32,000 nt of DNA from Ruminococcus albus 7 = DSM 20455 (GTDB lineage: Bacteria > Bacillota > Clostridia > Oscillospirales > Ruminococcaceae): NCBI RefSeq assembly GCF_000179635.2, contig NC_014824.1:120001-152000 (forward strand). Direction: 5' to 3'. Shown here piece by piece: positions 2,661-16,568 of this stretch. A model generated the notes under the pieces. That model did no database searches. It had not been told where the DNA came from and saw only the letters and a list, made by a program, of their open reading frames with translations. A program made the translations under genes and the position numbers. Position 1 is the stretch's first letter, and every line of letters begins with the position of its first letter.

Positions 2661-2789
2661 TGATGCGGGGGGTTATACGCTTACCTTAAAATTCTACACT
2701 TTTTGTGTGAATATTCAAGGGGATCGTATAAATTTTTAATCTTTTCACATATATCTGTTTATAGTAGTTAATAATTTTACAGAGATTTA

Positions 2790-3167
2790 TTATTGTTTAA
2801 CAAATAATGTATCTTCATTCAATACGCTCCAGCTGTACCTGTCTCCTATTTCTTTTTTTCCTTTAAACTTTATGATCAACTTGGTTGCATTGTATTCTCC
2901 TTCAAGGTGGCAATATATATATCTATCATTATACTTATCAATTATAATATTACCATGTACAATTAATTCCTGATTTTCATCTGATTCATAACCTGCTTCT
3001 GATGCTTTGCGAAAAGTTTCATCGACCAAATAATGAGTATACTTGTCTTTTATATGGTTTTCAAACTTTGTTCCAAAAATCTTATTATCGGTTTTAGGAT
3101 CTGGAATATAAGCACACAGTAATAATACTAAAATTACACTTAATGTTATTATAATTGTTTTTTTCAT
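2790..3167 (-). CDS. Small secreted protein or lipoprotein (125 aa), coupled to the upstream giant protein; candidate cognate/immunity partner
   Basis: N-terminus MKKTIIITLSVILVLLLCAY is signal-peptide-like with a Cys that could be a lipobox. RBS GAGGTG precedes the ATG. Only 18 nt downstream of the stop of 3186-5783. Confidence 0.65.
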   Translation of the reverse strand: MKKTIIITLSVILVLLLCAYIPDPKTDNKIFGTKFENHIKDKYTHYLVDETFRKASEAGYESDENQELIVHGNIIIDKYNDRYIYCHLEGEYNATKLIIKFKGKKEIGDRYSWSVLNEDTLFVKQ

Positions 3168-3185
3168 AATACACCTCGAAATAAC

Positions 3186-5783
3186 TCACATTAATCCTAT
3201 TGTATTTTTAATAAAAAGAGGACTGAATGTTTTTTTCAGTTTTCCATCACTATCCTTTATAGAGTATGAAGTAGTTTTATTGTATCCAATAGGATCATAA
3301 TTACCACTTGATGCATCATCTCCAAACATTTTTTTAAAATCTACAACCGTCTTAATCGCAACATACGGCTTAAAGTAGTTACCGTTATTTGTGAAACTAT
3401 AACTGCGAGTTGTATAATCATATAATTTCGTTTTCTTATTTAATTTACCGAGTGTTAAGGAATACTTCCAAGAAGTTCTATCACAACTGTAACCAAATTC
3501 CCACTTGCCTTTATACTTAACCCAAGTATATTTCATGGTTGTATTTAAACATACATCTGATAAACGGAGAAAGTTTGCACTAGTAGTATATAAATCGTGA
3601 GGTGAAGGTGTATAGTTGAAAAGGGTCTTAATGGCAACACTGAGTGTTTTACCTGCTACAGGGTGACCAGCGCAAGAAAGCAATGCAGACACTCCAGTAC
3701 CAAATAAATTTTTCATTGCTGTATTTAATAATTTCTTTGCCCTTGTCGGATTGGTGCATTCTCCAATCAGATATATTCCGGGAGAGTAATTGCATCTCAG
3801 CTTTGGATTTTTAGTTGATACCTTATCACTTACACTTAATGAATAGTACTGATATGATTTTCCATTATATGTATATGTAGAAGAAGTACGTATTACATCA
3901 TACATTTTATCAATACCATTGCAAGGATGAAAGTCAGATTTAGCTTTTTTTATTACGTTTTTAGTGAAAATAGGATGTGTTTGTTTGTCAAATAATTCGG
4001 AGATTTCCTGATTACTTAATAATATATTTTTTTCTTCCAATGAATCTCTTAGATATTGATACTCATTTATTATATTGAGATTCTCTGGATCGTCCTTTAA
4101 TTCTTCAACCTTTTCATAATAATCTTCAATTAGTTTATCGGTATCTTGCTGATATGATTGCTCTAATTGATAAAAAGATGAAAAAACATCTGTGCTTTCT
4201 GATATAATTACATTTTCTCCATCTAATAAAATACCAGATGCGATTATGAATCCTTTAAAGTTGATCTCTTTGGAATTAATTTCAACATAACCATTTGGCG
4301 CAAAAATAATACCAGAGTAGTTGAATTCATCTGAATTAAAAGTTATATTTCCATTTTTTGAAGCAATAATTTGCGCATCGTCTTGTTGAGATATAATCGA
4401 TGAAGCATCAATCATGATCTGGTTATCAGAATATATGTTGCCATTAAGCTTAAAATCATTAGCACAGCAATTTACGTTTGAAAAATATCCATCTTCATCA
4501 ATGGTATATGAATCGGTGGTCATTTCCAATTTGTTGCTTTGGGTATTGTTATAATCAGAAAATAACGCATTTAACGAATCATAAATAAAATCATTATCGT
4601 TTTCTGTTTTATTTCCTATTTCTTTTCTTATATTTGATGAAATATAAATTTTATTGGCTGAAGAAATATTTCCACTACATTCAAAATAATTGGATTTTAT
4701 AGTTATATTATTATCTTTTCCAATAGAATTTAGTACAAATGGAGTTGCAACACTATTATCATCTATATCTAATGAATTATTAACATCTACCGTGACATTA
4801 GCATCTTTAGGGTCAATGACAATTGTATTGCTTTCAACTATCCTATCACCGTAATTACAAGCGATTTTAATATATTTTCTTTTATTAAAAGAATTAACTG
4901 CATATGAATAGGAGTTCCTGTCATAGACTTCATCCACTAAATTAAATATCTCATTATCTTCTGACTCCAGAATATCATAAACAGCATTTACATTAGATTC
5001 CCATTCAATATCTATGGATGAGTTTTTATAATCACATGCTGCAAATAATTCAATGGTTGGAGTAATATCTTCATTCATGCCATCACTTTCAGATTTACTA
5101 TTAACGAAGTCGATAAACTCATTATTAGTATTTATATTGACGGTAGAAGAATTAAAACAAATCTTTTGGGCGATTACAATTGTATTATTAAGATTTACAT
5201 TGTCAGAATTGAATATTACTGAGCCATTAGGAGCATATATTAATCCTGTAATGTTAGTGTTATTTGATGTGAAATTTATATCTCCATTTTTAGAGTATAG
5301 AACTATGTCATTATTAGTACTTGTATTTCCTTCAACCGTAATTTCATCTGTTGACATAATACTTTTATTTAGAAGTATATTTCCTTCTAATCTAATCTCA
5401 CCATCACATATGATAGGCGTGTTAACAGATATGTTTGTGTCAACCCAAGTATAATCTTCTGAATAATTATCAGATCCTTCATTGAAAAATCTGTCTGAGA
5501 TTTTATTGTTCAAATCTGGTATGTCTTTTTCAACGGATTCAAAAATATTATTAATAGTACAATTTGATATTACATCACCATTTGTACAAATACTTCCATT
5601 TAAATTAAATGTAGATGAAGAAATATTAACAGCGTCTTCTTCAAAACTTCCTGCAAATAACGCATAGGAATACATATTGTTACATGATGATTCAATTGCA
5701 ACTACAGGTATTAATCCTGATATATTAAACATTATAGCGGATGAAATAATACCGGCTGTAAATCTTTGAAACATTGTTTTCAT
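3186..5783 (-). CDS. Large secreted Asn-rich beta-helix-like protein (865 aa) with an internally duplicated N-terminal module and an unknown C-terminal domain
   Basis: Hydrophobic N-terminal segment (FTAGIISSAIMFNISGLIPVVAI). Two copies of a ~170-aa module (aa ~38-215 and ~366-525), ending GLIYAPNGSVIFNSDNVNLNNTIVIAQ and GIIFAPNGYVEINSKEINFKGFIIAS. The same module opens the protein at 13065-16250. The C-terminal ~260 aa are unrelated. RBS AGGGAG lies upstream of ATG 5783. Confidence 0.85.
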   Translation of the reverse strand: MKTMFQRFTAGIISSAIMFNISGLIPVVAIESSCNNMYSYALFAGSFEEDAVNISSSTFNLNGSICTNGDVISNCTINNIFESVEKDIPDLNNKISDRFFNEGSDNYSEDYTWVDTNISVNTPIICDGEIRLEGNILLNKSIMSTDEITVEGNTSTNNDIVLYSKNGDINFTSNNTNITGLIYAPNGSVIFNSDNVNLNNTIVIAQKICFNSSTVNINTNNEFIDFVNSKSESDGMNEDITPTIELFAACDYKNSSIDIEWESNVNAVYDILESEDNEIFNLVDEVYDRNSYSYAVNSFNKRKYIKIACNYGDRIVESNTIVIDPKDANVTVDVNNSLDIDDNSVATPFVLNSIGKDNNITIKSNYFECSGNISSANKIYISSNIRKEIGNKTENDNDFIYDSLNALFSDYNNTQSNKLEMTTDSYTIDEDGYFSNVNCCANDFKLNGNIYSDNQIMIDASSIISQQDDAQIIASKNGNITFNSDEFNYSGIIFAPNGYVEINSKEINFKGFIIASGILLDGENVIISESTDVFSSFYQLEQSYQQDTDKLIEDYYEKVEELKDDPENLNIINEYQYLRDSLEEKNILLSNQEISELFDKQTHPIFTKNVIKKAKSDFHPCNGIDKMYDVIRTSSTYTYNGKSYQYYSLSVSDKVSTKNPKLRCNYSPGIYLIGECTNPTRAKKLLNTAMKNLFGTGVSALLSCAGHPVAGKTLSVAIKTLFNYTPSPHDLYTTSANFLRLSDVCLNTTMKYTWVKYKGKWEFGYSCDRTSWKYSLTLGKLNKKTKLYDYTTRSYSFTNNGNYFKPYVAIKTVVDFKKMFGDDASSGNYDPIGYNKTTSYSIKDSDGKLKKTFSPLFIKNTIGLM

Positions 5784-6768
5784 TTTATTCTCCCTAAATT
5801 ATGATGTGCTGACTTAATGTCTAAATCATGCCAGCCAATTTTATTGTATCATTTGTTGTTGAAAATTCTTATAGTAATCAATTTTTCTGCATTTTTTCTT
5901 TAATGAAATATAGCCAACTTAAAATTCTGAATATTATTCCTATGTTAACCTCCCTCATTATTCAAGATTTAATTCCTAAATGATTATTTATTATCACAAC
6001 CCGTCTCAGTAGTGTATATAATAACACTTTAGAATAATTATTACTACCCACAGCGTTTTTCTCAGACCAGAGAACTGGAAACACACGTTACTATGAGCAA
6101 TAGCTGCAACTTAGTCAAAACCATTCGCAGCAATGCTTTGAGGTACTGCATTGCTTGTTAACGTTAGCGAAAGTGCTGTTATAAGAGCAACATTTTTCTT
6201 TGAACTTTTTATAATTGACCATTCCGTTCTTTGAATTTTTGCTTTTAAAAGGGTAGTTATTGTTATTGAATTCCTCAAAAGACACTTGATAAGTGTAGCA
6301 TGTTTTTGTTATTATATCAAGACTGATTTTTTAATGTTTTGTGTAATATTTAAAATAAGTCAATGTAAGATTGTATTAGGGAATATTCGCTATTATAACA
6401 GTGTTGAGAAAAATGCCGTCATAGTACTATTATGGCGGGATCAGCCTGTCTCCAAACTCTATATCCAACGCGAATAACAATTCAAGCATATTTCCGTCTA
6501 AATTCTTTCGTTCTTCTGTTTAAAAAATATTTATTCTAAAATAAAAAAATAATTTAATTTGCGAAGCCCTTAAAACCGCGCGTTTTCGGACAATATCAAC
6601 CACATATATTTATTAATATGACATTTACAAAACTTTAATAAAAGATTTTTTGAAAAATAAAATTCCCAAAAAGCCCGAAAATAAGCCATTTGAGCAAAAT
6701 TCGTTTTTAAAAGAAGCCAAAAAACAAGAAAGAAATAGTTTTTTTCGTTTTTATTTTTCTAAGTTTTC

Positions 6769-6777
6769 TGCTATAAT
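6769..6777 (+). promoter_or_regulatory. Candidate extended -10 promoter (TGcTATAAT)
   Basis: TG at 6769-6770, TATAAT at 6772-6777. The upstream -35 region is just AT-rich (no clear TTGACA). Confidence 0.3.
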
Positions 6778-6784
6778 ACTCGTA

Positions 6785-7036
6785 GTGATAATAATTGATA
6801 ACTTGGAGTCTAGTGATCATCAAAAATAACCTTATGAAATACCTATCGAAATACATAATGAAGAAAATAACAGATACTTTTCCATGACTTAATACGATTT
6901 AAACTTTCAGATCAACTAACAGATTAAATACAAAGTATTTGTAATAGTAAGCATCATACCCAAAAACAAACAACTCTATGAAGGTTAAAGATGATCTAAT
7001 TATGCCGGACTCGGAATAAACTGAGTCCGGTTTTTT
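6785..7036 (+). ncRNA. Candidate ~250-nt non-coding transcript bracketed by a promoter-like element and an intrinsic terminator
   Basis: No ORF above 16 codons and no SD-preceded start between the TGcTATAAT element and the terminator at 7005-7036. Purely structural inference. Confidence 0.2.
7005..7036 (+). terminator. Rho-independent terminator
   Basis: Stem CCGGACTC (7005-7012) / GAGTCCGG (7023-7030), followed by TTTTTT (7031-7036). Confidence 0.65.
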
Positions 7037-9124: not shown

Positions 9125-9153
9125 TTGACTTTTGAAGACTTATGCGTTATAAT
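9125..9153 (+). promoter_or_regulatory. Near-consensus sigma-A promoter for the ATPase/TOPRIM pair
   Basis: TTGACT (9125-9130), 17-nt spacer, TATAAT (9148-9153). This places the ORF-track ATG at 9142 inside the promoter. Confidence 0.6.
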
Positions 9154-9174
9154 AGAACTGAAAGGAGTATTGTT

Positions 9175-10566
9175 ATGAAAAAGGAGAAAACTAGAATCAT
9201 AAGCATTTCCATTGAAAATATTAAAAATGTTTCTAAAGGCTCGGTGCTTTTAAATAATATAAAAGAGGATTCCATGGGTGCAAGTGTAATTGGCGTTTAC
9301 GGACAAAATGGTTCAGGTAAAACTGCACTTATATGGGCTATTGGTTTTATAAAGGATGCTATTTCTGGAGCCATTCTGCCTATGGACTCACATTATTATA
9401 TACGCCAAAAATCAGAACGAACACTTATTCAGGTGAAATTTGAAATAACAATACTTGAAAGAATATACGATGTATATTATGGCATTTCATTTGGCACAAC
9501 AAACGATAGAATTCAGATACTTTCTGAAAGCATCGACTATAGTGCTAAAGCAACTGAATCATTACCAAGAATAAACAAAACACGAATTATTGGTATTGAT
9601 TATCCAATGAACTCTACGGGTCTTGATGAATGCTTTTATATCCCCGATACTCGTATTGATGAAATGGCAAGAATAAATAAGCCTGTTCGTCAAAAGCTGC
9701 TTGTTCTTCAAGCGTTGGCAAACGAAAAAATGACATCTTTCATTTTTAATGACAAAATGATGGAACTTTTAAAGGCATCATTTACTAATGATATCTTCTT
9801 TAAAATATTAGATGAACTCCGCTTTTTTGCACGAATGAATCTTTTTGTGCTTAATAAAAACTCGGAATCATCATATAATATGAATCTTCTTCCGTTAAGT
9901 ATGCGATTGAGCACACAGAATACTATCTCAAAGTCAGATGCAATTCCAGTTGGGCTCGGTCAAAATAGTGCTTCGGCTGATGCCTTTAGAACCATTCAAA
10001 GTATAATTGCGCAAATTGATCTTTTAATCGGCAATATTGTGCCTGGTCTAAAAATTGACATAATCAATAAGACATCACAATTTAATGAAAGGGCAGAAGA
10101 AGAGCTGGTATTTGAATTAGCATCTAATCGCAATGGCATCATTACACCTTTAAGATATGAATCCGAAGGAATCAAGAAGATACTATGTATTTTGAGTTCA
10201 TTGATAGCAATGTACAATGATAGTTCAATATTTGTTGCCATCGATGAAATGGATGCAGGGATCTTTGAGTATCTGTTAGGTGAAATACTTGAAACAATCA
10301 AATCTACAGGAAAAGGACAGCTTTTATTCACATCCCATAATATGCGACCTTTGGAAGTGCTGGATAATTCAAGTATTTATTTCACAACGACTAATCCTAA
10401 TAATAAATATATTAAATTTACTGGAATCAAAAACAATAATAACCTGAGAACCACTTTATTGAGAACAATAGATTTAGGCGGACAAAAAGAATCAATTTAT
10501 GAAAATACAAGTACCTACCAAATTGGAAAGGCATTTAGGAAAGCAGGGGTGCTTGTAAGTGACTGA
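9175..10566 (+). CDS. ABC/SMC-like AAA ATPase (AAA_21/AAA_15-type, AbiL-i / RloA / AriA-like)
   Basis: Start moved to ATG 9175 (SD AAAGGAG 8 nt upstream). Walker A GQNGSGKT. A long inserted region between Walker A and an ABC-signature-like YESEGIKK. Walker B IFVAIDEMD. H-loop LLFTSHN. Confidence 0.85.
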   Translation: MKKEKTRIISISIENIKNVSKGSVLLNNIKEDSMGASVIGVYGQNGSGKTALIWAIGFIKDAISGAILPMDSHYYIRQKSERTLIQVKFEITILERIYDVYYGISFGTTNDRIQILSESIDYSAKATESLPRINKTRIIGIDYPMNSTGLDECFYIPDTRIDEMARINKPVRQKLLVLQALANEKMTSFIFNDKMMELLKASFTNDIFFKILDELRFFARMNLFVLNKNSESSYNMNLLPLSMRLSTQNTISKSDAIPVGLGQNSASADAFRTIQSIIAQIDLLIGNIVPGLKIDIINKTSQFNERAEEELVFELASNRNGIITPLRYESEGIKKILCILSSLIAMYNDSSIFVAIDEMDAGIFEYLLGEILETIKSTGKGQLLFTSHNMRPLEVLDNSSIYFTTTNPNNKYIKFTGIKNNNNLRTTLLRTIDLGGQKESIYENTSTYQIGKAFRKAGVLVSD

Positions 10567-11266
10567 GAGCAAAATTATTTTATTTATTGTTGAGGGAATG
10601 AGCGATGAAGTAGCACTTGCCCCTGCGCTTGAACAAATTATTACAAGCAATACAGTCAAATTCAAAGTAATGAGGTCAGATATTACCTGTGATTTTTCTT
10701 CTACAGTTAGCAATATTGAACGTAGGATTAAAAAATTAGGCGTAAAAAAGTTCCTTGATGAAAACGCTCAGTTTAACGAAAATGACATTTGCGCAGTAAT
10801 TCATATTGTCGATTTAGATGGGGCATTTGCACCAGATTCGATTGTTATTGAAGATAACACCATAGACAAAGCGCAATATCATGACGATTCCATTGTATGT
10901 AAGGATCGAAATCTTTTTTTACAAACAAAGAATAATAAGGAACTTATCCTGTTACATTTATGCACTTTAAAAGAGATAGCCATTCCTCATGGAATTAAAG
11001 TACCATATTCTATTTATTATATGTCATGTAATCTGGATCACGTTCTTCACGATAAGAGAAATTCAACAGTTGAAGAAAAGAAAAATAATAGTTTAGATTT
11101 TTCTGATAAATATGATGACCCACTATTATTTGAAAAGTTCTTTAATGAAGGAGACATTAAAATCAATGGAACATATGAGGAAACATGGAAATACGTTCAA
11201 CAAGGATTAAACTCTTTATTGAGAGGATCAAATTTCTGGATTTGTATTAATAATCATAAGAGTTAA
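10559..11266 (+). CDS. TOPRIM-type putative nuclease (RloB / DUF4435 / OLD-TOPRIM-like), partner of the ATPase
   Basis: GTG start overlaps the ATPase stop by 8 nt. KIILFIVEGMSDEV (TOPRIM Glu), IHIVDLDGAF (DxD), YMSCNLDHVLHD resembling the RloB S-N-x-x-F-E-x-W-L-L-H block. Confidence 0.7.
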   Translation: MTESKIILFIVEGMSDEVALAPALEQIITSNTVKFKVMRSDITCDFSSTVSNIERRIKKLGVKKFLDENAQFNENDICAVIHIVDLDGAFAPDSIVIEDNTIDKAQYHDDSIVCKDRNLFLQTKNNKELILLHLCTLKEIAIPHGIKVPYSIYYMSCNLDHVLHDKRNSTVEEKKNNSLDFSDKYDDPLLFEKFFNEGDIKINGTYEETWKYVQQGLNSLLRGSNFWICINNHKS

Positions 11267-12516: not shown

Positions 12517-13068
12517 CTATGGTCTAAAAGCAGTAACGATAATCCATTTATTGTCATCATATTCTAAATATAACCTATTTGGCATCCCATCATACCCTAT
12601 ATCATAGTTGTAAGTTTCACCATTTTTTTTATAAGTTGCATGATATTCACATCCATAAAAAAATATAGCTTTATTCTTATGCCTTAGTACATCTGTTTCT
12701 TTAATAACAAATTGTTCATCTGTTATCTCATAATTATTTTCGGATAGAAAATCACGAGGATTTATATATGAAAAAGTATGGTCTGATATTATTCCTTGTA
12801 ATTCCTCTGTCAGTGTTCCATTGTAATTTAAAGAATCGTTAACTACTTTATTACCTAAATTTTCTATCTCATCTTTATCTTTAGAATGCAGAATAAATCT
12901 AAGATCCCAAACATTTAAGTATTCAGCATCTGTTTTACTTGGCTGATTATCATCGTAGTATTTATTGTTCCAGTATACCGTTCGAGTAAAAATAAATAGT
13001 ATTATGCCGAAAGATAAAGCTGCTATAATCATCACAGAGATTAGTATAACTCTTTTTCTCTTTGTCAT
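12517..13068 (-). CDS. Membrane-anchored protein (183 aa), translationally coupled to the giant amidase-domain protein; candidate immunity/cognate partner
   Basis: N-terminal TM helix VILISVMIIAALSFGIILFIF after a KRKR stretch. Its ATG overlaps the upstream stop as ATGA (13065-13068). Confidence 0.7.
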   Translation of the reverse strand: MTKRKRVILISVMIIAALSFGIILFIFTRTVYWNNKYYDDNQPSKTDAEYLNVWDLRFILHSKDKDEIENLGNKVVNDSLNYNGTLTEELQGIISDHTFSYINPRDFLSENNYEITDEQFVIKETDVLRHKNKAIFFYGCEYHATYKKNGETYNYDIGYDGMPNRLYLEYDDNKWIIVTAFRP

Positions 13069-16000
13069 AACGCATCACTCATTTGAACAATATAAACATA
13101 ATCGTAAAGATAATCATTTGGATCTTCGGTATCTTCATCAGGAGTCATTATCTTATCTGAAAGCGGTGTCATACTTGCAGGATTTGAATGACCTGCATAG
13201 TATATTTCGGAATCATCGATTTTACTAATAATGGTTGCGTGAGTAACCTCTTTTTTGGGCTTATGAACATTATGGAAATATAGTGTATCCCCAACCTTTA
13301 TTTCGAGATGATTTTGAACAAAATCTGATATTGAATCTCCACGATTAATTTTATAATATGCAATAGAATATGTTTCTTTAAAATATTTATATTGTGCTTC
13401 AGCATCAGTCCATTTTAGAGACCATTTTAATGATAAATCTTGGGCTCTATCTCCCCATACGGTAGTTATGTAATCAAATAGATTATTTTTCTTAACATAC
13501 CATAAACTATTCATCTGCATTCCACCTGCATAAACACATTGTGAAACAAAATTAGCACAATCAGAATCGATTCGCGGGTATTCTGAATTAAAAGTATTAT
13601 AATATTTCTGAGAGTATTCATATGCTGCATTTCTATCATAGATAGTATCAGAAAGATTTAATGGATATTTGTCTCTACCATCAAGTGCTCCATCATCATC
13701 TGTATCATCATCAAAAGCATTTGTGGCTGCAATCAATTCATGATAGTCATCTAATTCATCATCATCAGTATCCGGATCAGTTGGGTCACTTGTTGGTTTA
13801 AACTTAAAAATATTTATTGTTTCAAATTCCTCATCGAAAGTTTCGACCATTATCTTTTGAATGTACAAAGATTCATTTACTTCTTGACCGTCGGTCAAAT
13901 CATCTCCATCGGAATCTGGCTTATTGGGATTTGTAAAAACCAATTTTCCGTTTGGGAGTGGAATACCTGAAATATACTCTATATCATTAGGAAGACCATC
14001 ACCATCGCTGTCCTCCATCTCTCTAAAGTCAGTCATATTATTGTAAGCATAACTCTCGTATATTTTAGTAAGTCCCTCTGCTGTAGTTGCTGTAAGAGGT
14101 GTTCCACCTGTATCATTAGCGTATTGTTTTAACAGCTGGCTATTAGCCCCGGAACCAAGTGCAACTGTATGTATTCTTATTCCATTGTTTTTACAATATT
14201 TTATATTATCATCGGAAACATTTACATCTCCATCGGAAAGAAGGATAATATTTTTCTTTCCATAAACATGATTTAATTCATCAATAGCAATATCAATAGC
14301 ACTGTTAGCATTCGTTCCTCCTCTATTGTAGAAGGAAGCCTTACCGCTTAATGTACGCTTATTATTTGTCATTTCGCACTCCTCAGATGCTGATGATTCG
14401 AAAGTAATAATACTTGCGTTGTCAAAAACAAACATTGACTCAACATAATTCTGTACTGCTATGTTTCTATAACAAGTTAATACACCATTATCGTCTTTAA
14501 AGCTTTTGTCATTGGTTGACATACTTCCGGAGCAATCAACGCATATTGCAGTATATGAAGGAATTGCAGAAAAAATAGCGGCGTAGGAATTATAGATTTT
14601 TCTCCAGTTATTAAACCATTCTGTTTTATCTACAACCATATACTTACTAAAATGTTCCGTTTCAATGGAAACAATAGAGTTTTCACTATCATAGAAGGTA
14701 TCAAGTTCTACAAACTCTTTTTTCTTTTCATCATACCATAAAAACATCAGATTGTCAAACTCTGTATCGCCCAGCTTGCTCTGATCTATTTTAAAGCTCA
14801 AAGTAGCTTTTTTATATTCTGATGAAATTTTAATAGAGAAAGGTTCTCCAACAAGTCCCACAACATCTGTACACATTTTGTCTTTGTTCATGACACTTTT
14901 AATTTTTGCAGTCTTCTGAAGATTACCCGTACCCTCCATAGAAACGATAACTTCTGTTACAGCACAATCCTCGTTCTCTACCTTGTGGGTAAATGTCTGA
15001 GAACGTCTCTCTTCGCCGTCAAGTTCACCATCATCGTCAGTATCGGGATCGTTGGGGTCTGTACCGAAATATATCTCGTCATCATCATTCAGACCGTCCT
15101 TGTCGGTATCCATTTCGAGAGGATCAGTGTAATATTTATCACCCTCTTCGCCGTCTTTGAGGTTATCTCCGTCGGTATCATCAGCATAAGGTCTTGTGCC
15201 TATCTCATATTCACGACCGTTTGAAAGACCATCTTCATCGTAATCTTCATCGTAATCAGATACGCCATTATTGTCTGTATCGATTTTCAAAGGATCGGTT
15301 CCGAGAGAAAGTACTTCATATCCATCAGGCAGAAGATCTCCGTCAGTATCAGCCTCATAAGGCTTTGTACCTATTTCCTTTTCTATAATGTTTGGCAGAC
15401 CGTCTTTGTCTGTATCAGCAAGATACTTCCAATCAGCAAAAGTCCAGCTTAGTTCTTCGGTTTCAGTACCTACAAATTCTGCCCATGTGTTGCTGTAATT
15501 GATGTTAGCACCATAGCGGCTGCTAATAACAACATTCTGTGCGATTATGATACCGTTCAGATTAAAATTGTCACAGTCGATGGTAACTGTACCAAATGGC
15601 GCATAGATCAGACCGTTCATTGAAGCTTGGCTTTCATCGATCTTTATATCACCGAATTTGGAATAGATCACAGCATTGTTGCCGTTGAGATTTCCGCCGC
15701 TTAGAGTAACATCGGAAACCGCACCGATTGCGGTATTCAGAGCCATATTGCCATTATATGACATCTTGCCTGTAACATATACAGGCGAATTTAGGTTGAT
15801 GTTCATCTCTGACAGAGTGTAATCATTATCAAAGTTCCTGCCATTATTGAACCAGCCGGTCATCAGCTTGTTGTGGATATAGATCATATCCCTGCTGATA
15901 TCGAAAGCTTTAGCGCTGTCCTGTGCATCGGTGGCGTTTTCATCATCGGTGACTACCTCATCAACAGCAAGTGCTTCGTTCTCCAAAATAGTACCATTTA

Positions 16001-16250
16001 CATTCGGATACTTTGCAGTTGTCGAATAAACACCGTTTGTACAAGCATTGCCATTGACCGTCAGATAATTAAGGTCAAGCTTAATGCCACCTAGTTCATC
16101 CGCAGCAAATATCGCATACGGATATGCTTCCTGCTTACTTGCAGAGTCAGCACTTGCAGGTAAAACTGCTGACATACTTGTTGTTATCATAGCTAATGAT
16201 AACAGCCCGGAAACAATACGTTTCTGGTTTTTTGATCGTTTTTGATCCAT
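13065..16250 (-). CDS. Giant secreted multidomain protein: beta-helix-like module + TSP3-type Ca-binding repeats + vWA domain + TSP3 repeats + C-terminal Amidase_6/NlpC-P60-like putative amidase
   Basis: Start moved to ATG 16250 (SD GGAGGG 5 nt upstream).
Domains, numbered from the ORF-track M1:
- Signal peptide LLSLAMITTSMSAVLPASA.
- Module with GLIYAPFGTVTIDCDNFNLNGIIIAQ (aa ~55-265).
- Asp-rich repeats DTDKDGLPN / DTDGDLLPDG / GTDP...DTD (aa ~291-427 and ~758-872).
- vWA MIDAS VDCSGSMS, GGTNANSAI, IILLSDGD (aa ~578-745).
- C-terminal YDRNAAYEYSQKY...DCANFVSQCVYAGG...THATIIS...YAGHSN (aa ~883-1040). Confidence 0.88.
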   Translation of the reverse strand: MDQKRSKNQKRIVSGLLSLAMITTSMSAVLPASADSASKQEAYPYAIFAADELGGIKLDLNYLTVNGNACTNGVYSTTAKYPNVNGTILENEALAVDEVVTDDENATDAQDSAKAFDISRDMIYIHNKLMTGWFNNGRNFDNDYTLSEMNINLNSPVYVTGKMSYNGNMALNTAIGAVSDVTLSGGNLNGNNAVIYSKFGDIKIDESQASMNGLIYAPFGTVTIDCDNFNLNGIIIAQNVVISSRYGANINYSNTWAEFVGTETEELSWTFADWKYLADTDKDGLPNIIEKEIGTKPYEADTDGDLLPDGYEVLSLGTDPLKIDTDNNGVSDYDEDYDEDGLSNGREYEIGTRPYADDTDGDNLKDGEEGDKYYTDPLEMDTDKDGLNDDDEIYFGTDPNDPDTDDDGELDGEERRSQTFTHKVENEDCAVTEVIVSMEGTGNLQKTAKIKSVMNKDKMCTDVVGLVGEPFSIKISSEYKKATLSFKIDQSKLGDTEFDNLMFLWYDEKKKEFVELDTFYDSENSIVSIETEHFSKYMVVDKTEWFNNWRKIYNSYAAIFSAIPSYTAICVDCSGSMSTNDKSFKDDNGVLTCYRNIAVQNYVESMFVFDNASIITFESSASEECEMTNNKRTLSGKASFYNRGGTNANSAIDIAIDELNHVYGKKNIILLSDGDVNVSDDNIKYCKNNGIRIHTVALGSGANSQLLKQYANDTGGTPLTATTAEGLTKIYESYAYNNMTDFREMEDSDGDGLPNDIEYISGIPLPNGKLVFTNPNKPDSDGDDLTDGQEVNESLYIQKIMVETFDEEFETINIFKFKPTSDPTDPDTDDDELDDYHELIAATNAFDDDTDDDGALDGRDKYPLNLSDTIYDRNAAYEYSQKYYNTFNSEYPRIDSDCANFVSQCVYAGGMQMNSLWYVKKNNLFDYITTVWGDRAQDLSLKWSLKWTDAEAQYKYFKETYSIAYYKINRGDSISDFVQNHLEIKVGDTLYFHNVHKPKKEVTHATIISKIDDSEIYYAGHSNPASMTPLSDKIMTPDEDTEDPNDYLYDYVYIVQMSDAL

Positions 16251-16568
16251 TTTAACCCTCCTGAATAAATTTTCATGCCGAATTTGCATGGCGAATTACT
16301 TATAATTGATAACGCGCGAAAGTTAATATATCATGTTCATTATAGAATGTCAATAAATTAGTATACGATTTAGGATTATATACTTAATTATTGTTAATCA
16401 ACCAAATTACCACATTATAGAATAGACAATTAACTCGATACGCAAAAGCAGTCACACTTCACTTATGGTTAAAACTAATCGATTTCGGTGTTTTAGAAAA
16501 AAAGCCAAAATTGAATCAAAATATGATCAATCAACAACAGTGATAGACAAATTCAACTCCATAAGATG

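Follow-up and report, generated by a model that had tools for sequence, protein, structure and literature searches.

Does a pair of adjacent genes in Ruminococcus albus 7 encode an exported toxin and the protein that would protect its producer, and if so, what kind of toxin system do the two belong to? The genes lie in a stretch of 32,000 nucleotides (nt) from contig NC_014824.1 (positions 120,001 to 152,000), which we will call the window; all coordinates below are positions within it. The candidate toxin is an open reading frame (ORF) of 865 amino acids (aa) at 3186-5783 on the minus strand, and the candidate immunity protein is an ORF of 125 aa at 2790-3167, also on the minus strand, which starts 18 nt past the stop codon of its neighbor. 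We will call them A and partner a. A first-pass annotation, made from the DNA sequence, had proposed that A is a polymorphic toxin; its coordinates for both ORFs, and the 18-nt gap, were exact. Given the sequence comparisons described here, it is very likely that A and partner a form one toxin-immunity cassette of a polymorphic toxin family. We also consider it likely that the segment at 2684-6870 is a self-contained toxin-immunity cassette, and that the family is Sec-exported and belongs to Clostridia of the gut and rumen.

Two paralogous gene pairs

The window contains a second candidate pair on the minus strand. B (1074 aa; 13065-16289) is a paralogous putative toxin, as judged from Pfam matches and from a module that it has in common with A. 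It comprises a putative signal peptide, a single copy of the module, TSP3 repeats, a VWA domain, and an Amidase_6 domain at the C-terminus. (We will refer to the variable C-terminal domains as tips.) Partner b (183 aa; 12517-13068), whose gene overlaps the stop codon of B by 4 nt, begins with MTKRKRVILISVMIIAALSFGIILFIF; it is a candidate immunity protein that would be anchored in the membrane by its N-terminus. The two partners show no relationship to each other (best E = 5.9).

Both A and B open with a basic and then hydrophobic stretch that reads as a Sec-type signal. In A, the putative signal peptide spans aa 1-29 (5697-5783, minus strand). By eye, it has a basic n-region (K2 and R7) and a hydrophobic core that ends in PVVA, just before IE. 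The same layout recurs in the consensus of 47 homologs. We predict that A is exported via this signal peptide.

One N-terminal module and many C-termini

In a word-indexed protein search, 17 proteins matched A, and two of them are full-length relatives (P0001 at 99% identity and P0002 at 41%). In the other 15 proteins, the shared region is the N-terminal 25-40% of A alone. TSP3 repeats and VWA domains are present in those proteins, and the C-terminus is DUF3289, Peptidase_M23, CDI_toxin_EC869_like, or Ntox44. A profile search with a 16-sequence alignment of the module added few further proteins. We also scanned one genome per species with a pattern built from a 5-sequence alignment of the module, and we found 76 module loci. 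These loci are nearly all in Ruminococcus, Lachnospiraceae, or Oscillospiraceae, and several genomes have more than one copy. Cultured strains of Ruminococcus albus and R. flavefaciens are among the sources (L019, L031, L033, and L038).

From the 76 loci we drew those ORFs that were complete and at least 550 aa long, 48 in number, and we analyzed them together with A and B (50 proteins in all). The first 260 aa of these proteins form one BLAST cluster with 49 members. This is expected, since the N-terminus was the basis on which the loci were picked. The last 250 aa form 30 clusters, for which a selection effect is excluded. The first-pass annotation had suggested a search for homologs of the module that carry alternative C-termini, and 30 C-terminal clusters to a single N-terminal cluster is a clear positive answer. 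Among the homologs, the tips that belong to Pfam families are DUF4474 (seven proteins), AHH (three), DUF3289, Ntox44, CDI_toxin_EC869_like, and Peptidase_M23, along with Amidase_6 in B. The majority of the tips have no Pfam family.

The change from one tip to another is abrupt. For instance, the proteins from loci L033 and L038 are 94% identical over ~940 aa, and they are unrelated past a point that falls between RYYLPILS and DPTDEDTDDD. The identical break point is seen in many further pairs of homologs. The junction motif, which is YYLPI[LH]S followed by DPTxxDTDDDG, is the last TSP3-type repeat before the tip; it is carried by the proteins from L033, L038, L031, L043, L061, and L025, at about aa 930-960. 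The equivalent in B is PTSDPTDPDTDDD (aa ~835-850), and in P0003 it is YSDPTKEDTDGDG. Judging by these alignments, the junction is comparable in behavior to the motifs that demarcate the tips in other families of polymorphic toxins. The result on the discrete junction covers the main family, as distinct from the sub-lineage to which A belongs.

Three side observations concern the extent of the family. First, P0003 (aa 937-1222) and P0005 (aa 923-1246) have a common C-terminal domain (31% identity), which is probably the PF27189 domain of the precomputed annotations and which appears to be a further family of tips. Second, nine module loci (L091-L099) are on IMG/VR contigs of 17-85 kb that are classed as viral or prophage; some members of the family may be phage-borne. 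Third, three loci (L014, L046, and L055) are from metagenome-assembled genomes that are labeled Muribaculum or Alistipes, which are Bacteroidota. Because the distribution of the family is otherwise strictly clostridial, these labels may reflect contamination during binning.

Downstream genes track the tips

An ORF of at least 50 aa, which starts between -29 and +140 nt from the stop codon, follows about 43 of the 48 homologs. The clusters of these downstream ORFs correspond to the clusters of tips (7/7, 3/3, 3/3, 2/3, 2/3, and 2/2), with zero cross-assignment. Also, a homolog of partner a lies behind the tip of A in all four loci where this could be checked (see below). So the small ORFs are conserved as pairs with the tips, without mixing, which is what the first-pass annotation had proposed to look for.

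The kind of partner also varies with the tip. The CDI_toxin_EC869_like tip is followed by a CdiI-family protein, and behind the Ntox44 tip lies an ORF of 186 aa. The partners of the AHH nuclease tips are without a membrane segment, the partners of the DUF4474 tips are lipoproteins, and the partner of the amidase tip of B is membrane-anchored. Across the family, then, the topology of the partner appears from sequence to follow the type of tip.

By every computational criterion (polymorphic tips, known toxin domains among the tips, co-variation of tips and downstream ORFs, and abrupt junctions), the family looks like a polymorphic toxin system. These four features agree with the interpretation that the first-pass annotation had offered.

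The scaffold of A

The first-pass annotation stated that A contains two copies of the module and that B contains one. This is supported by BLASTP, by an internal repeat, and by the solenoids in an AlphaFold2 model. The first copy (aa ~30-225; 5109-5696, minus strand) is a DUF7305-type beta-solenoid that resembles ice-binding proteins, as identified by BLASTP, Pfam, AlphaFold2, and Foldseek. In BLASTP, aa 6-232 of A match aa 23-278 of B with 31% identity and E = 4e-29. The second copy (aa ~349-529; 4197-4739, minus strand) is identified by the internal repeat (aa 80-205 to aa 400-516, 31% identity, E = 7e-8), by its match to B, and by AlphaFold2. With the composition correction on, aa 472-520 of A match aa 207-255 of B (E = 1e-5); with the correction off, aa 337-550 match aa 46-295 (E = 3e-8). 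The second copy is homologous to the single module of shorter relatives (P0024-P0027, ~560-580 aa). MAFFT places the single modules of these shorter relatives on the first copy, which indicates that the two copies in A are homologous.

Between the two copies is an FN3-like beta-sandwich (aa ~246-324; 4812-5048, minus strand). It is modeled with a predicted local distance difference test score (pLDDT) of 84-93, and in Foldseek it has many matches to FN3 domains, with target-normalized template modeling scores (TM-scores) of 0.5-0.68. This domain is also found in members of the main family (P0005, P0007, P0008, and P0016). After the second copy of the module comes a helical, coiled-coil-like linker (aa ~531-605; 3969-4193, minus strand), which AlphaFold2 models as a long helix from residue 502 of the fragment. 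The linker, of ~75 aa, is kept in all of the relatives that bear an A-type tip.

We modeled aa 30-560 of A with AlphaFold2, using a 22-sequence alignment, and obtained a mean pLDDT of 87.2. The order of the model is a solenoid (pLDDT 92-98), the FN3-like sandwich, a second solenoid (pLDDT 85-98), and the long helix. In Foldseek, the top match in the Protein Data Bank (PDB) is 5uyt, a two-domain ice-binding protein (E = 5.9e-6, probability 1.0). It is followed by another ice-binding protein (7bwy), by pectate lyases, and by many FN3 domains, which match the middle part. Thus the earlier expectation of a beta-helix is borne out by the AlphaFold2 solenoids and by their matches to the beta-solenoids of ice-binding proteins.

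The model of A contains a beta-solenoid, as do proteins of the DUF3494/IBP-1 fold (such as 7bwy, or 5uyt from an Antarctic Flavobacteriaceae bacterium), and it contains two copies of it, as 5uyt does. Unlike these proteins, A, B, and their homologs have no DUF3494 match in Pfam, and the sequence identity to A is ~10%. The whole-chain TM-scores of the model to ice-binding proteins are 0.2-0.26, which are low because the query is multi-domain. Ice binding is implausible because the source organisms are anaerobes of the gut and rumen.

The first-pass annotation did not recognize the module as a named domain. In fact, A passes the curated gathering threshold of an uncharacterized Pfam family, DUF7305 (PF23981; 40.9 bits against a threshold of 27 bits, E = 2.6e-10, in two stretches), but the family captures the module only in part. 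P0002 also matches (30.8 bits), as do 21 of 47 N-termini of homologs at E < 0.01; B has no DUF7305 match at E up to 1. Weak matches to pAdhesive_15, a family of ice-binding-like adhesive domains, are found in 5 of the 47. B and roughly one half of the family fall short of the DUF7305 profile, so that it covers the module partially. In profile searches, DUF7305 is found as well on 388-aa TadG-like proteins that contain a Tad domain (PF13400). Unlike A, these proteins begin with an N-terminus of the pseudopilin type, and they bear no toxin tip.

Since the scaffold resembles adhesins, and since DUF7305 occurs on TadG-like pilus proteins, the solenoids and the FN3-like domain are probably, by analogy, for surface binding or serve as a spacer or stalk. 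Could A itself be a secreted or surface adhesin, with a ligand-binding C-terminus, and with partner a as an accessory membrane protein (an anchor or chaperone)? An ice-binding-like solenoid and an FN3 domain, with TSP3 and VWA domains in the relatives, are typical of adhesins, and the presence of DUF7305 on pilus proteins fits as well. Also, the tip of A has no recognizable catalytic motif and is never found on another delivery platform. Nevertheless, we consider this explanation improbable. In dozens of relatives, the same scaffold bears bona fide toxin domains along with the cognate immunity genes. The tight pairing of toxin and small ORF, the 4.2-kb mobile cassette, and a low-GC island with an integrase and IS66 (described below) would suit a conflict system. 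And the tip of A is better conserved than its scaffold: relative to P0002, the tip is about 60% identical and the scaffold is about 32-35% identical. The first-pass annotation had asked whether the tip might be an adhesin or lectin, and we found no such likeness by sequence or by fold.

A belongs to a rare sub-lineage that is without TSP3 repeats and VWA, and which has the second solenoid and the coiled coil in their place. Because the shorter relatives P0024-P0027 (560-580 aa) have just a single solenoid between the signal peptide and the linker with its tip, A looks like the head of a main-family protein joined to a protein of this shorter type.

The partner of A faces outward in our prediction

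Partner a has an N-terminal hydrophobic segment that contains a cysteine. As the first-pass annotation described it, this ORF is 18 nt away from A and unrelated to partner b, and both points stand; its description as lipoprotein-like holds only in part. The lipobox is non-canonical (LLLC, tested against the pattern [LVI][ASTVI][GAS]C expected where a signal peptide ends). The cysteine is absent from this segment in the homologs from L002 and L084 and is displaced in the homolog from L001. Since the cysteine is not kept, we view partner a as having a membrane anchor rather than as a conserved lipoprotein.

Four distinct loci with an A-type tip have downstream DNA, and all four (the window, L002, L001, and L084) have a homolog of partner a behind the tip. 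The L002 homolog (130 aa, 49% identity) likewise starts 18 nt past the toxin gene, and the L001 homolog is a partial ORF. The L084 homolog (163 aa) was identified by hhalign (probability 92%, E = 6.7e-7), and the tip at that locus is 37% identical to that of A. Partner a also accompanies P0001 on every one of the metagenome contigs L087-L090. All of the homologs have a short basic N-terminus and then one hydrophobic segment, and by the positive-inside rule, the ~100-aa domain of partner a is predicted to be outside of the cell. Partner a would then be anchored in the membrane of the producing cell, with its domain outside, where it would neutralize the tip and protect the producer and its kin.

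At L084 (4750-5361), there are two successive immunity-like ORFs behind a distant relative of A. The second of these begins MSRTSIVKKIIIIVL, continues to PSAEFDG, and is like the L001 copy, which suggests that L084 has tandem immunity paralogs. In the window, there are no orphan tip or immunity modules downstream of partner a.

The tip of A and where it may act

The candidate toxin domain of A is its tip (aa ~617-865 plus the stop codon; 3186-3935, minus strand). The first-pass annotation had noted that the C-terminus of A is not similar to the amidase of B, and indeed, matches between the C-terminal ~250 aa and the Amidase_6 domain are at chance level only. In Pfam, nothing meaningful was found for the tip of A or for 10 homologs of the tip, and the newer precomputed annotation of P0001 gives the same result. 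NCBIfam has nothing for A or partner a. By sequence, A has no match to PDB chains at E up to 1, and a profile of the tip has one chance-level match in the PDB (a peptidoglycan-recognition protein, E = 0.42). Foldseek comparisons of the tip model to the PDB and to BFVD gave no match with E up to 0.001. An exhaustive HMMER search of 1.84 billion representative proteins found 10 representatives related to the tip (E up to 0.001), down to 28% identity. Computed this way, the tip appears to be a candidate toxin domain with no known relative outside of this family.

The AlphaFold2 model of the tip has a pLDDT of 70.7, with a confidently modeled beta core that has very long strands. The Gly/Ala-rich stretch that the first-pass annotation pointed out is an amphipathic insertion that is rich in Gly, Ala, and Ser (aa 675-734; 3582-3761, minus strand; low-confidence helices at residues 76-135 of the modeled fragment). 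Across relatives, the insertion has remained rich in small residues and moderately hydrophobic, and the best 19-residue Kyte-Doolittle window scores 0.7-1.45. The invariant residues of the tip are D629, R632, D653, and K654, and most of the others are aromatic.

We considered and rejected two enzymatic assignments. A cysteine peptidase (with C621, H707, and H729/D730) does not fit because those residues are not conserved in relatives at 28-37% identity. An ADP-ribosyltransferase with an R-S-E arrangement, which we looked for by eye, does not fit because the spacing is wrong and the TTS is not conserved. Separately, P0021 (412 aa) has an FtsW/RodA-like N-terminus that passes, precisely at a shared peptide (GLFGKGFG), into the final ~175 aa of the tip; it is most likely an assembly chimera and not a genuine fusion.

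Given the predicted topology of partner a, and given the internal controls from the rest of the family, in which the topology of the partner tracks the type of tip, we think that the tip of A probably acts outside of the cytoplasm, although with less assurance than for the cassette as a whole. We propose that after export, the two solenoids, the FN3-like domain, and the coiled-coil stalk would present the tip at the C-terminus. Because partner a faces outward, the likeliest target would be the cell envelope: most likely the membrane, by way of the Gly/Ala-rich amphipathic insertion, or else the cell wall or a lipid-linked precursor.

One specific form of this proposal is that the tip forms pores or depolarizes membranes. 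The Gly/Ala-rich segment would leave the beta-sheet core and insert into the target membrane, and partner a would block its insertion or its oligomerization at the membrane of the producer. The conserved small-residue amphipathic insertion of ~50 aa lies between long strands and is modeled with low confidence, as would be expected for a segment that refolds. Also, the tip has no conserved Cys or His of the catalytic type, partner a is apparently membrane-anchored and outward-facing, and the top fold matches, which are weak, are CsgG, a gasdermin pore, PlyB, and polyC9. But those matches are not significant (best E = 0.078, TM-score < 0.2), the segment is only modestly hydrophobic (0.7-1.45) and is interrupted by lysines, a canonical GxxxG zipper is absent, and the invariant D629, R632, and D653 could equally well be catalytic. 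We regard pore formation as a possibility with rather less than even chances.

Alternatively, the tip could be an extracytoplasmic enzyme whose substrate would be peptidoglycan, teichoic acid, or a lipid-linked precursor, with partner a as its extracellular inhibitor. Among effectors that target the cell wall or lipid II, outward-facing immunity proteins are the rule (as in TelC/TipC and the Tae/Tai families), and the logic here would be comparable to that of TelC/TipC or of the amidase effectors. The sister locus pairs a wall amidase (B) with a membrane-anchored partner, the tip has invariant acidic and basic residues (D629, R632, D653, and K654), and the marginal profile match is to a peptidoglycan-recognition protein. 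However, that match (E = 0.42) is at chance level, and the tip has no similarity, in sequence or in fold, to hydrolases, amidases, lipases, or phosphatases. An enzyme of this kind seems about as doubtful to us as a pore.

Several observations weigh against our proposal of a polymorphic toxin that acts on the envelope. All 10 representatives of the tip are found in the same context of solenoid and linker, with no other delivery domain, and swapping of tips was not seen inside the sub-lineage of A. The insertion is less hydrophobic than a typical transmembrane helix, and the tip has no conserved catalytic set of the Cys/His type. The model of the tip is of moderate confidence (pLDDT 70.7), and the missing fold matches could partly be due to errors in the model. 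Finally, the proposal gives no route across the Gram-positive envelope for those tips in the wider family that would act in the cytoplasm.

The cassette and its neighborhood

Gene A and gene a, together with an upstream non-coding region and a short tail, form a 4.2-kb cassette (2684-6870, minus strand) that is 98% identical over 4,196 nt to the four metagenome contigs L087-L090. The homology ends abruptly at 2684 and at 6870, and the flanks differ on both sides. In L087-L090, the flanks contain ClpA/ClpS downstream and leucine-rich repeat genes; in the window, the cassette lies between an IS66 transposase and a tyrosine integrase. From this comparison of contigs, it appears that the pair moves between different flanks as a 4.2-kb unit. 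A scan of the cassette for repeats found AT-rich chance matches only and no terminal repeats.

The upstream region (5784-6870, minus strand) is AT-rich, ~1.1 kb long, and conserved with the cassette. It contains no ORF of at least 80 aa, and Rfam has no matches there or elsewhere in the window. Promoter-like hexamers are present and are not distinctive; in such AT-rich DNA, scans for promoters and terminators were uninformative. This region is presumably a promoter and leader; possible alternatives are a long leader, a regulatory region, or genes for small peptides.

A and B are both in a ~15-kb stretch with low GC content (0.27-0.36, versus about 0.45 outside). Between the two toxin loci (9142-11266, plus strand) are genes for a 474-aa AAA_21 ATPase, which matches AbiLi in PADLOC (E = 3.8e-30), and for an overlapping 235-aa partner without a family match. 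These are probably an AbiL-type phage-defense pair. Small ORFs lie upstream of the IS66-family transposase (580-2091). On the plus strand, two neighboring ORFs (2081-2293 and 2297-2620), which end at a strong terminator-like hairpin (2625-2651), look like one disrupted gene.

Some related toxin loci adjoin a lactococcin-972-type bacteriocin/ABC locus, Agr-like quorum-sensing genes (LytTR, HATPase_c_5, and AgrB), or a PT-HINT fragment (L001:1063-4216; L002:6591-9114 and 10285-10875; L005:92-2118). This hints that antagonism genes are clustered, and possibly regulated by quorum sensing.

Comparison to known toxin systems

WapA/WapI from Bacillus subtilis is an example of a Sec-dependent polymorphic toxin system. 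Such systems were defined by Zhang, de Souza, Anantharaman, Iyer, and Aravind in 2012 (PMC3482391). Like those systems, the family described here has a signal peptide, a long conserved scaffold, a variable C-terminal toxin domain, and a co-varying immunity gene downstream. It also has sharp recombination junctions, several paralogs per genome, and some of the same families of tips (AHH, Ntox44, and EC869-like). The scaffold is different: it is not RHS/YD, ALF, or FilH, nor any of the N-terminal domains of the Sec route in Table 1 of that paper (MAFB-N, MicroscillaN, and APD1/2). Ruminococcus, vWA, and beta-helix are not mentioned within the first 300,000 characters of its text. Instead, the scaffold of this family consists of an ice-binding-like beta-solenoid (DUF7305), FN3, and, in most members, TSP3 repeats and VWA. 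RHS/YD repeats, as in WapA, had no match in A, in B, or in the sampled homologs.

Like CdiA/CdiB and the LXG toxins of the type VII secretion system (T7SS), the family has modular tips with cognate immunity proteins, and one relative has a CdiA-type EC869-like DNase along with CdiI. In contrast to CdiA/CdiB, neither a TPS domain nor above-threshold FHA repeats were found by Pfam in A or B, and there is no CdiB. (In 2 of 47 homologs, there is a sub-threshold match to Fil_haemagg with E = 0.004.) Unlike the LXG toxins, A has a classical signal peptide and no LXG domain. The ORFs of the window that we scanned include no WXG100 or T7SS genes.

Full-text searches of the literature for DUF7305 and for DUF4474 returned no papers, and in our literature searches combined, we found no paper on polymorphic toxins whose N-termini are marked by this module. 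According to a 2026 study, most Ruminococcus genomes with Tde nuclease effectors are without a known toxin secretion system, and the study describes the route of these effectors as unknown (PMC13556189).

Implications

Although this kind of system is known, the class of scaffold, the architecture of A, the tip of A, and the family of partner a appear to be new. More tentatively, and with somewhat less than even odds, the DUF7305 solenoid after a Sec signal would be an undescribed delivery platform, and the tip of A would be a toxin with a new fold that acts on the membrane or envelope from the outside and is countered by membrane-anchored immunity proteins of a new family.

Antagonism among the Bacillota, which dominate the gut and rumen, is far less understood than the warfare by type VI secretion (T6SS) in Bacteroidales. 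To our knowledge, the Clostridia of these habitats are largely without T6SS and often without T7SS. With 76 loci in species-representative genomes, this family provides a concrete and abundant handle on antagonism in Bacillota. Since most of its tips have no Pfam match, it offers candidates for new families of toxins and immunity proteins, and the junction motif could be used to mine further tips. It also raises the question of how nucleases might be delivered across the Gram-positive envelope by a scaffold of beta-solenoid, FN3, TSP3, and VWA domains. The tip of A, together with its partner, could reveal a new way of attacking the envelope and of neutralizing that attack.

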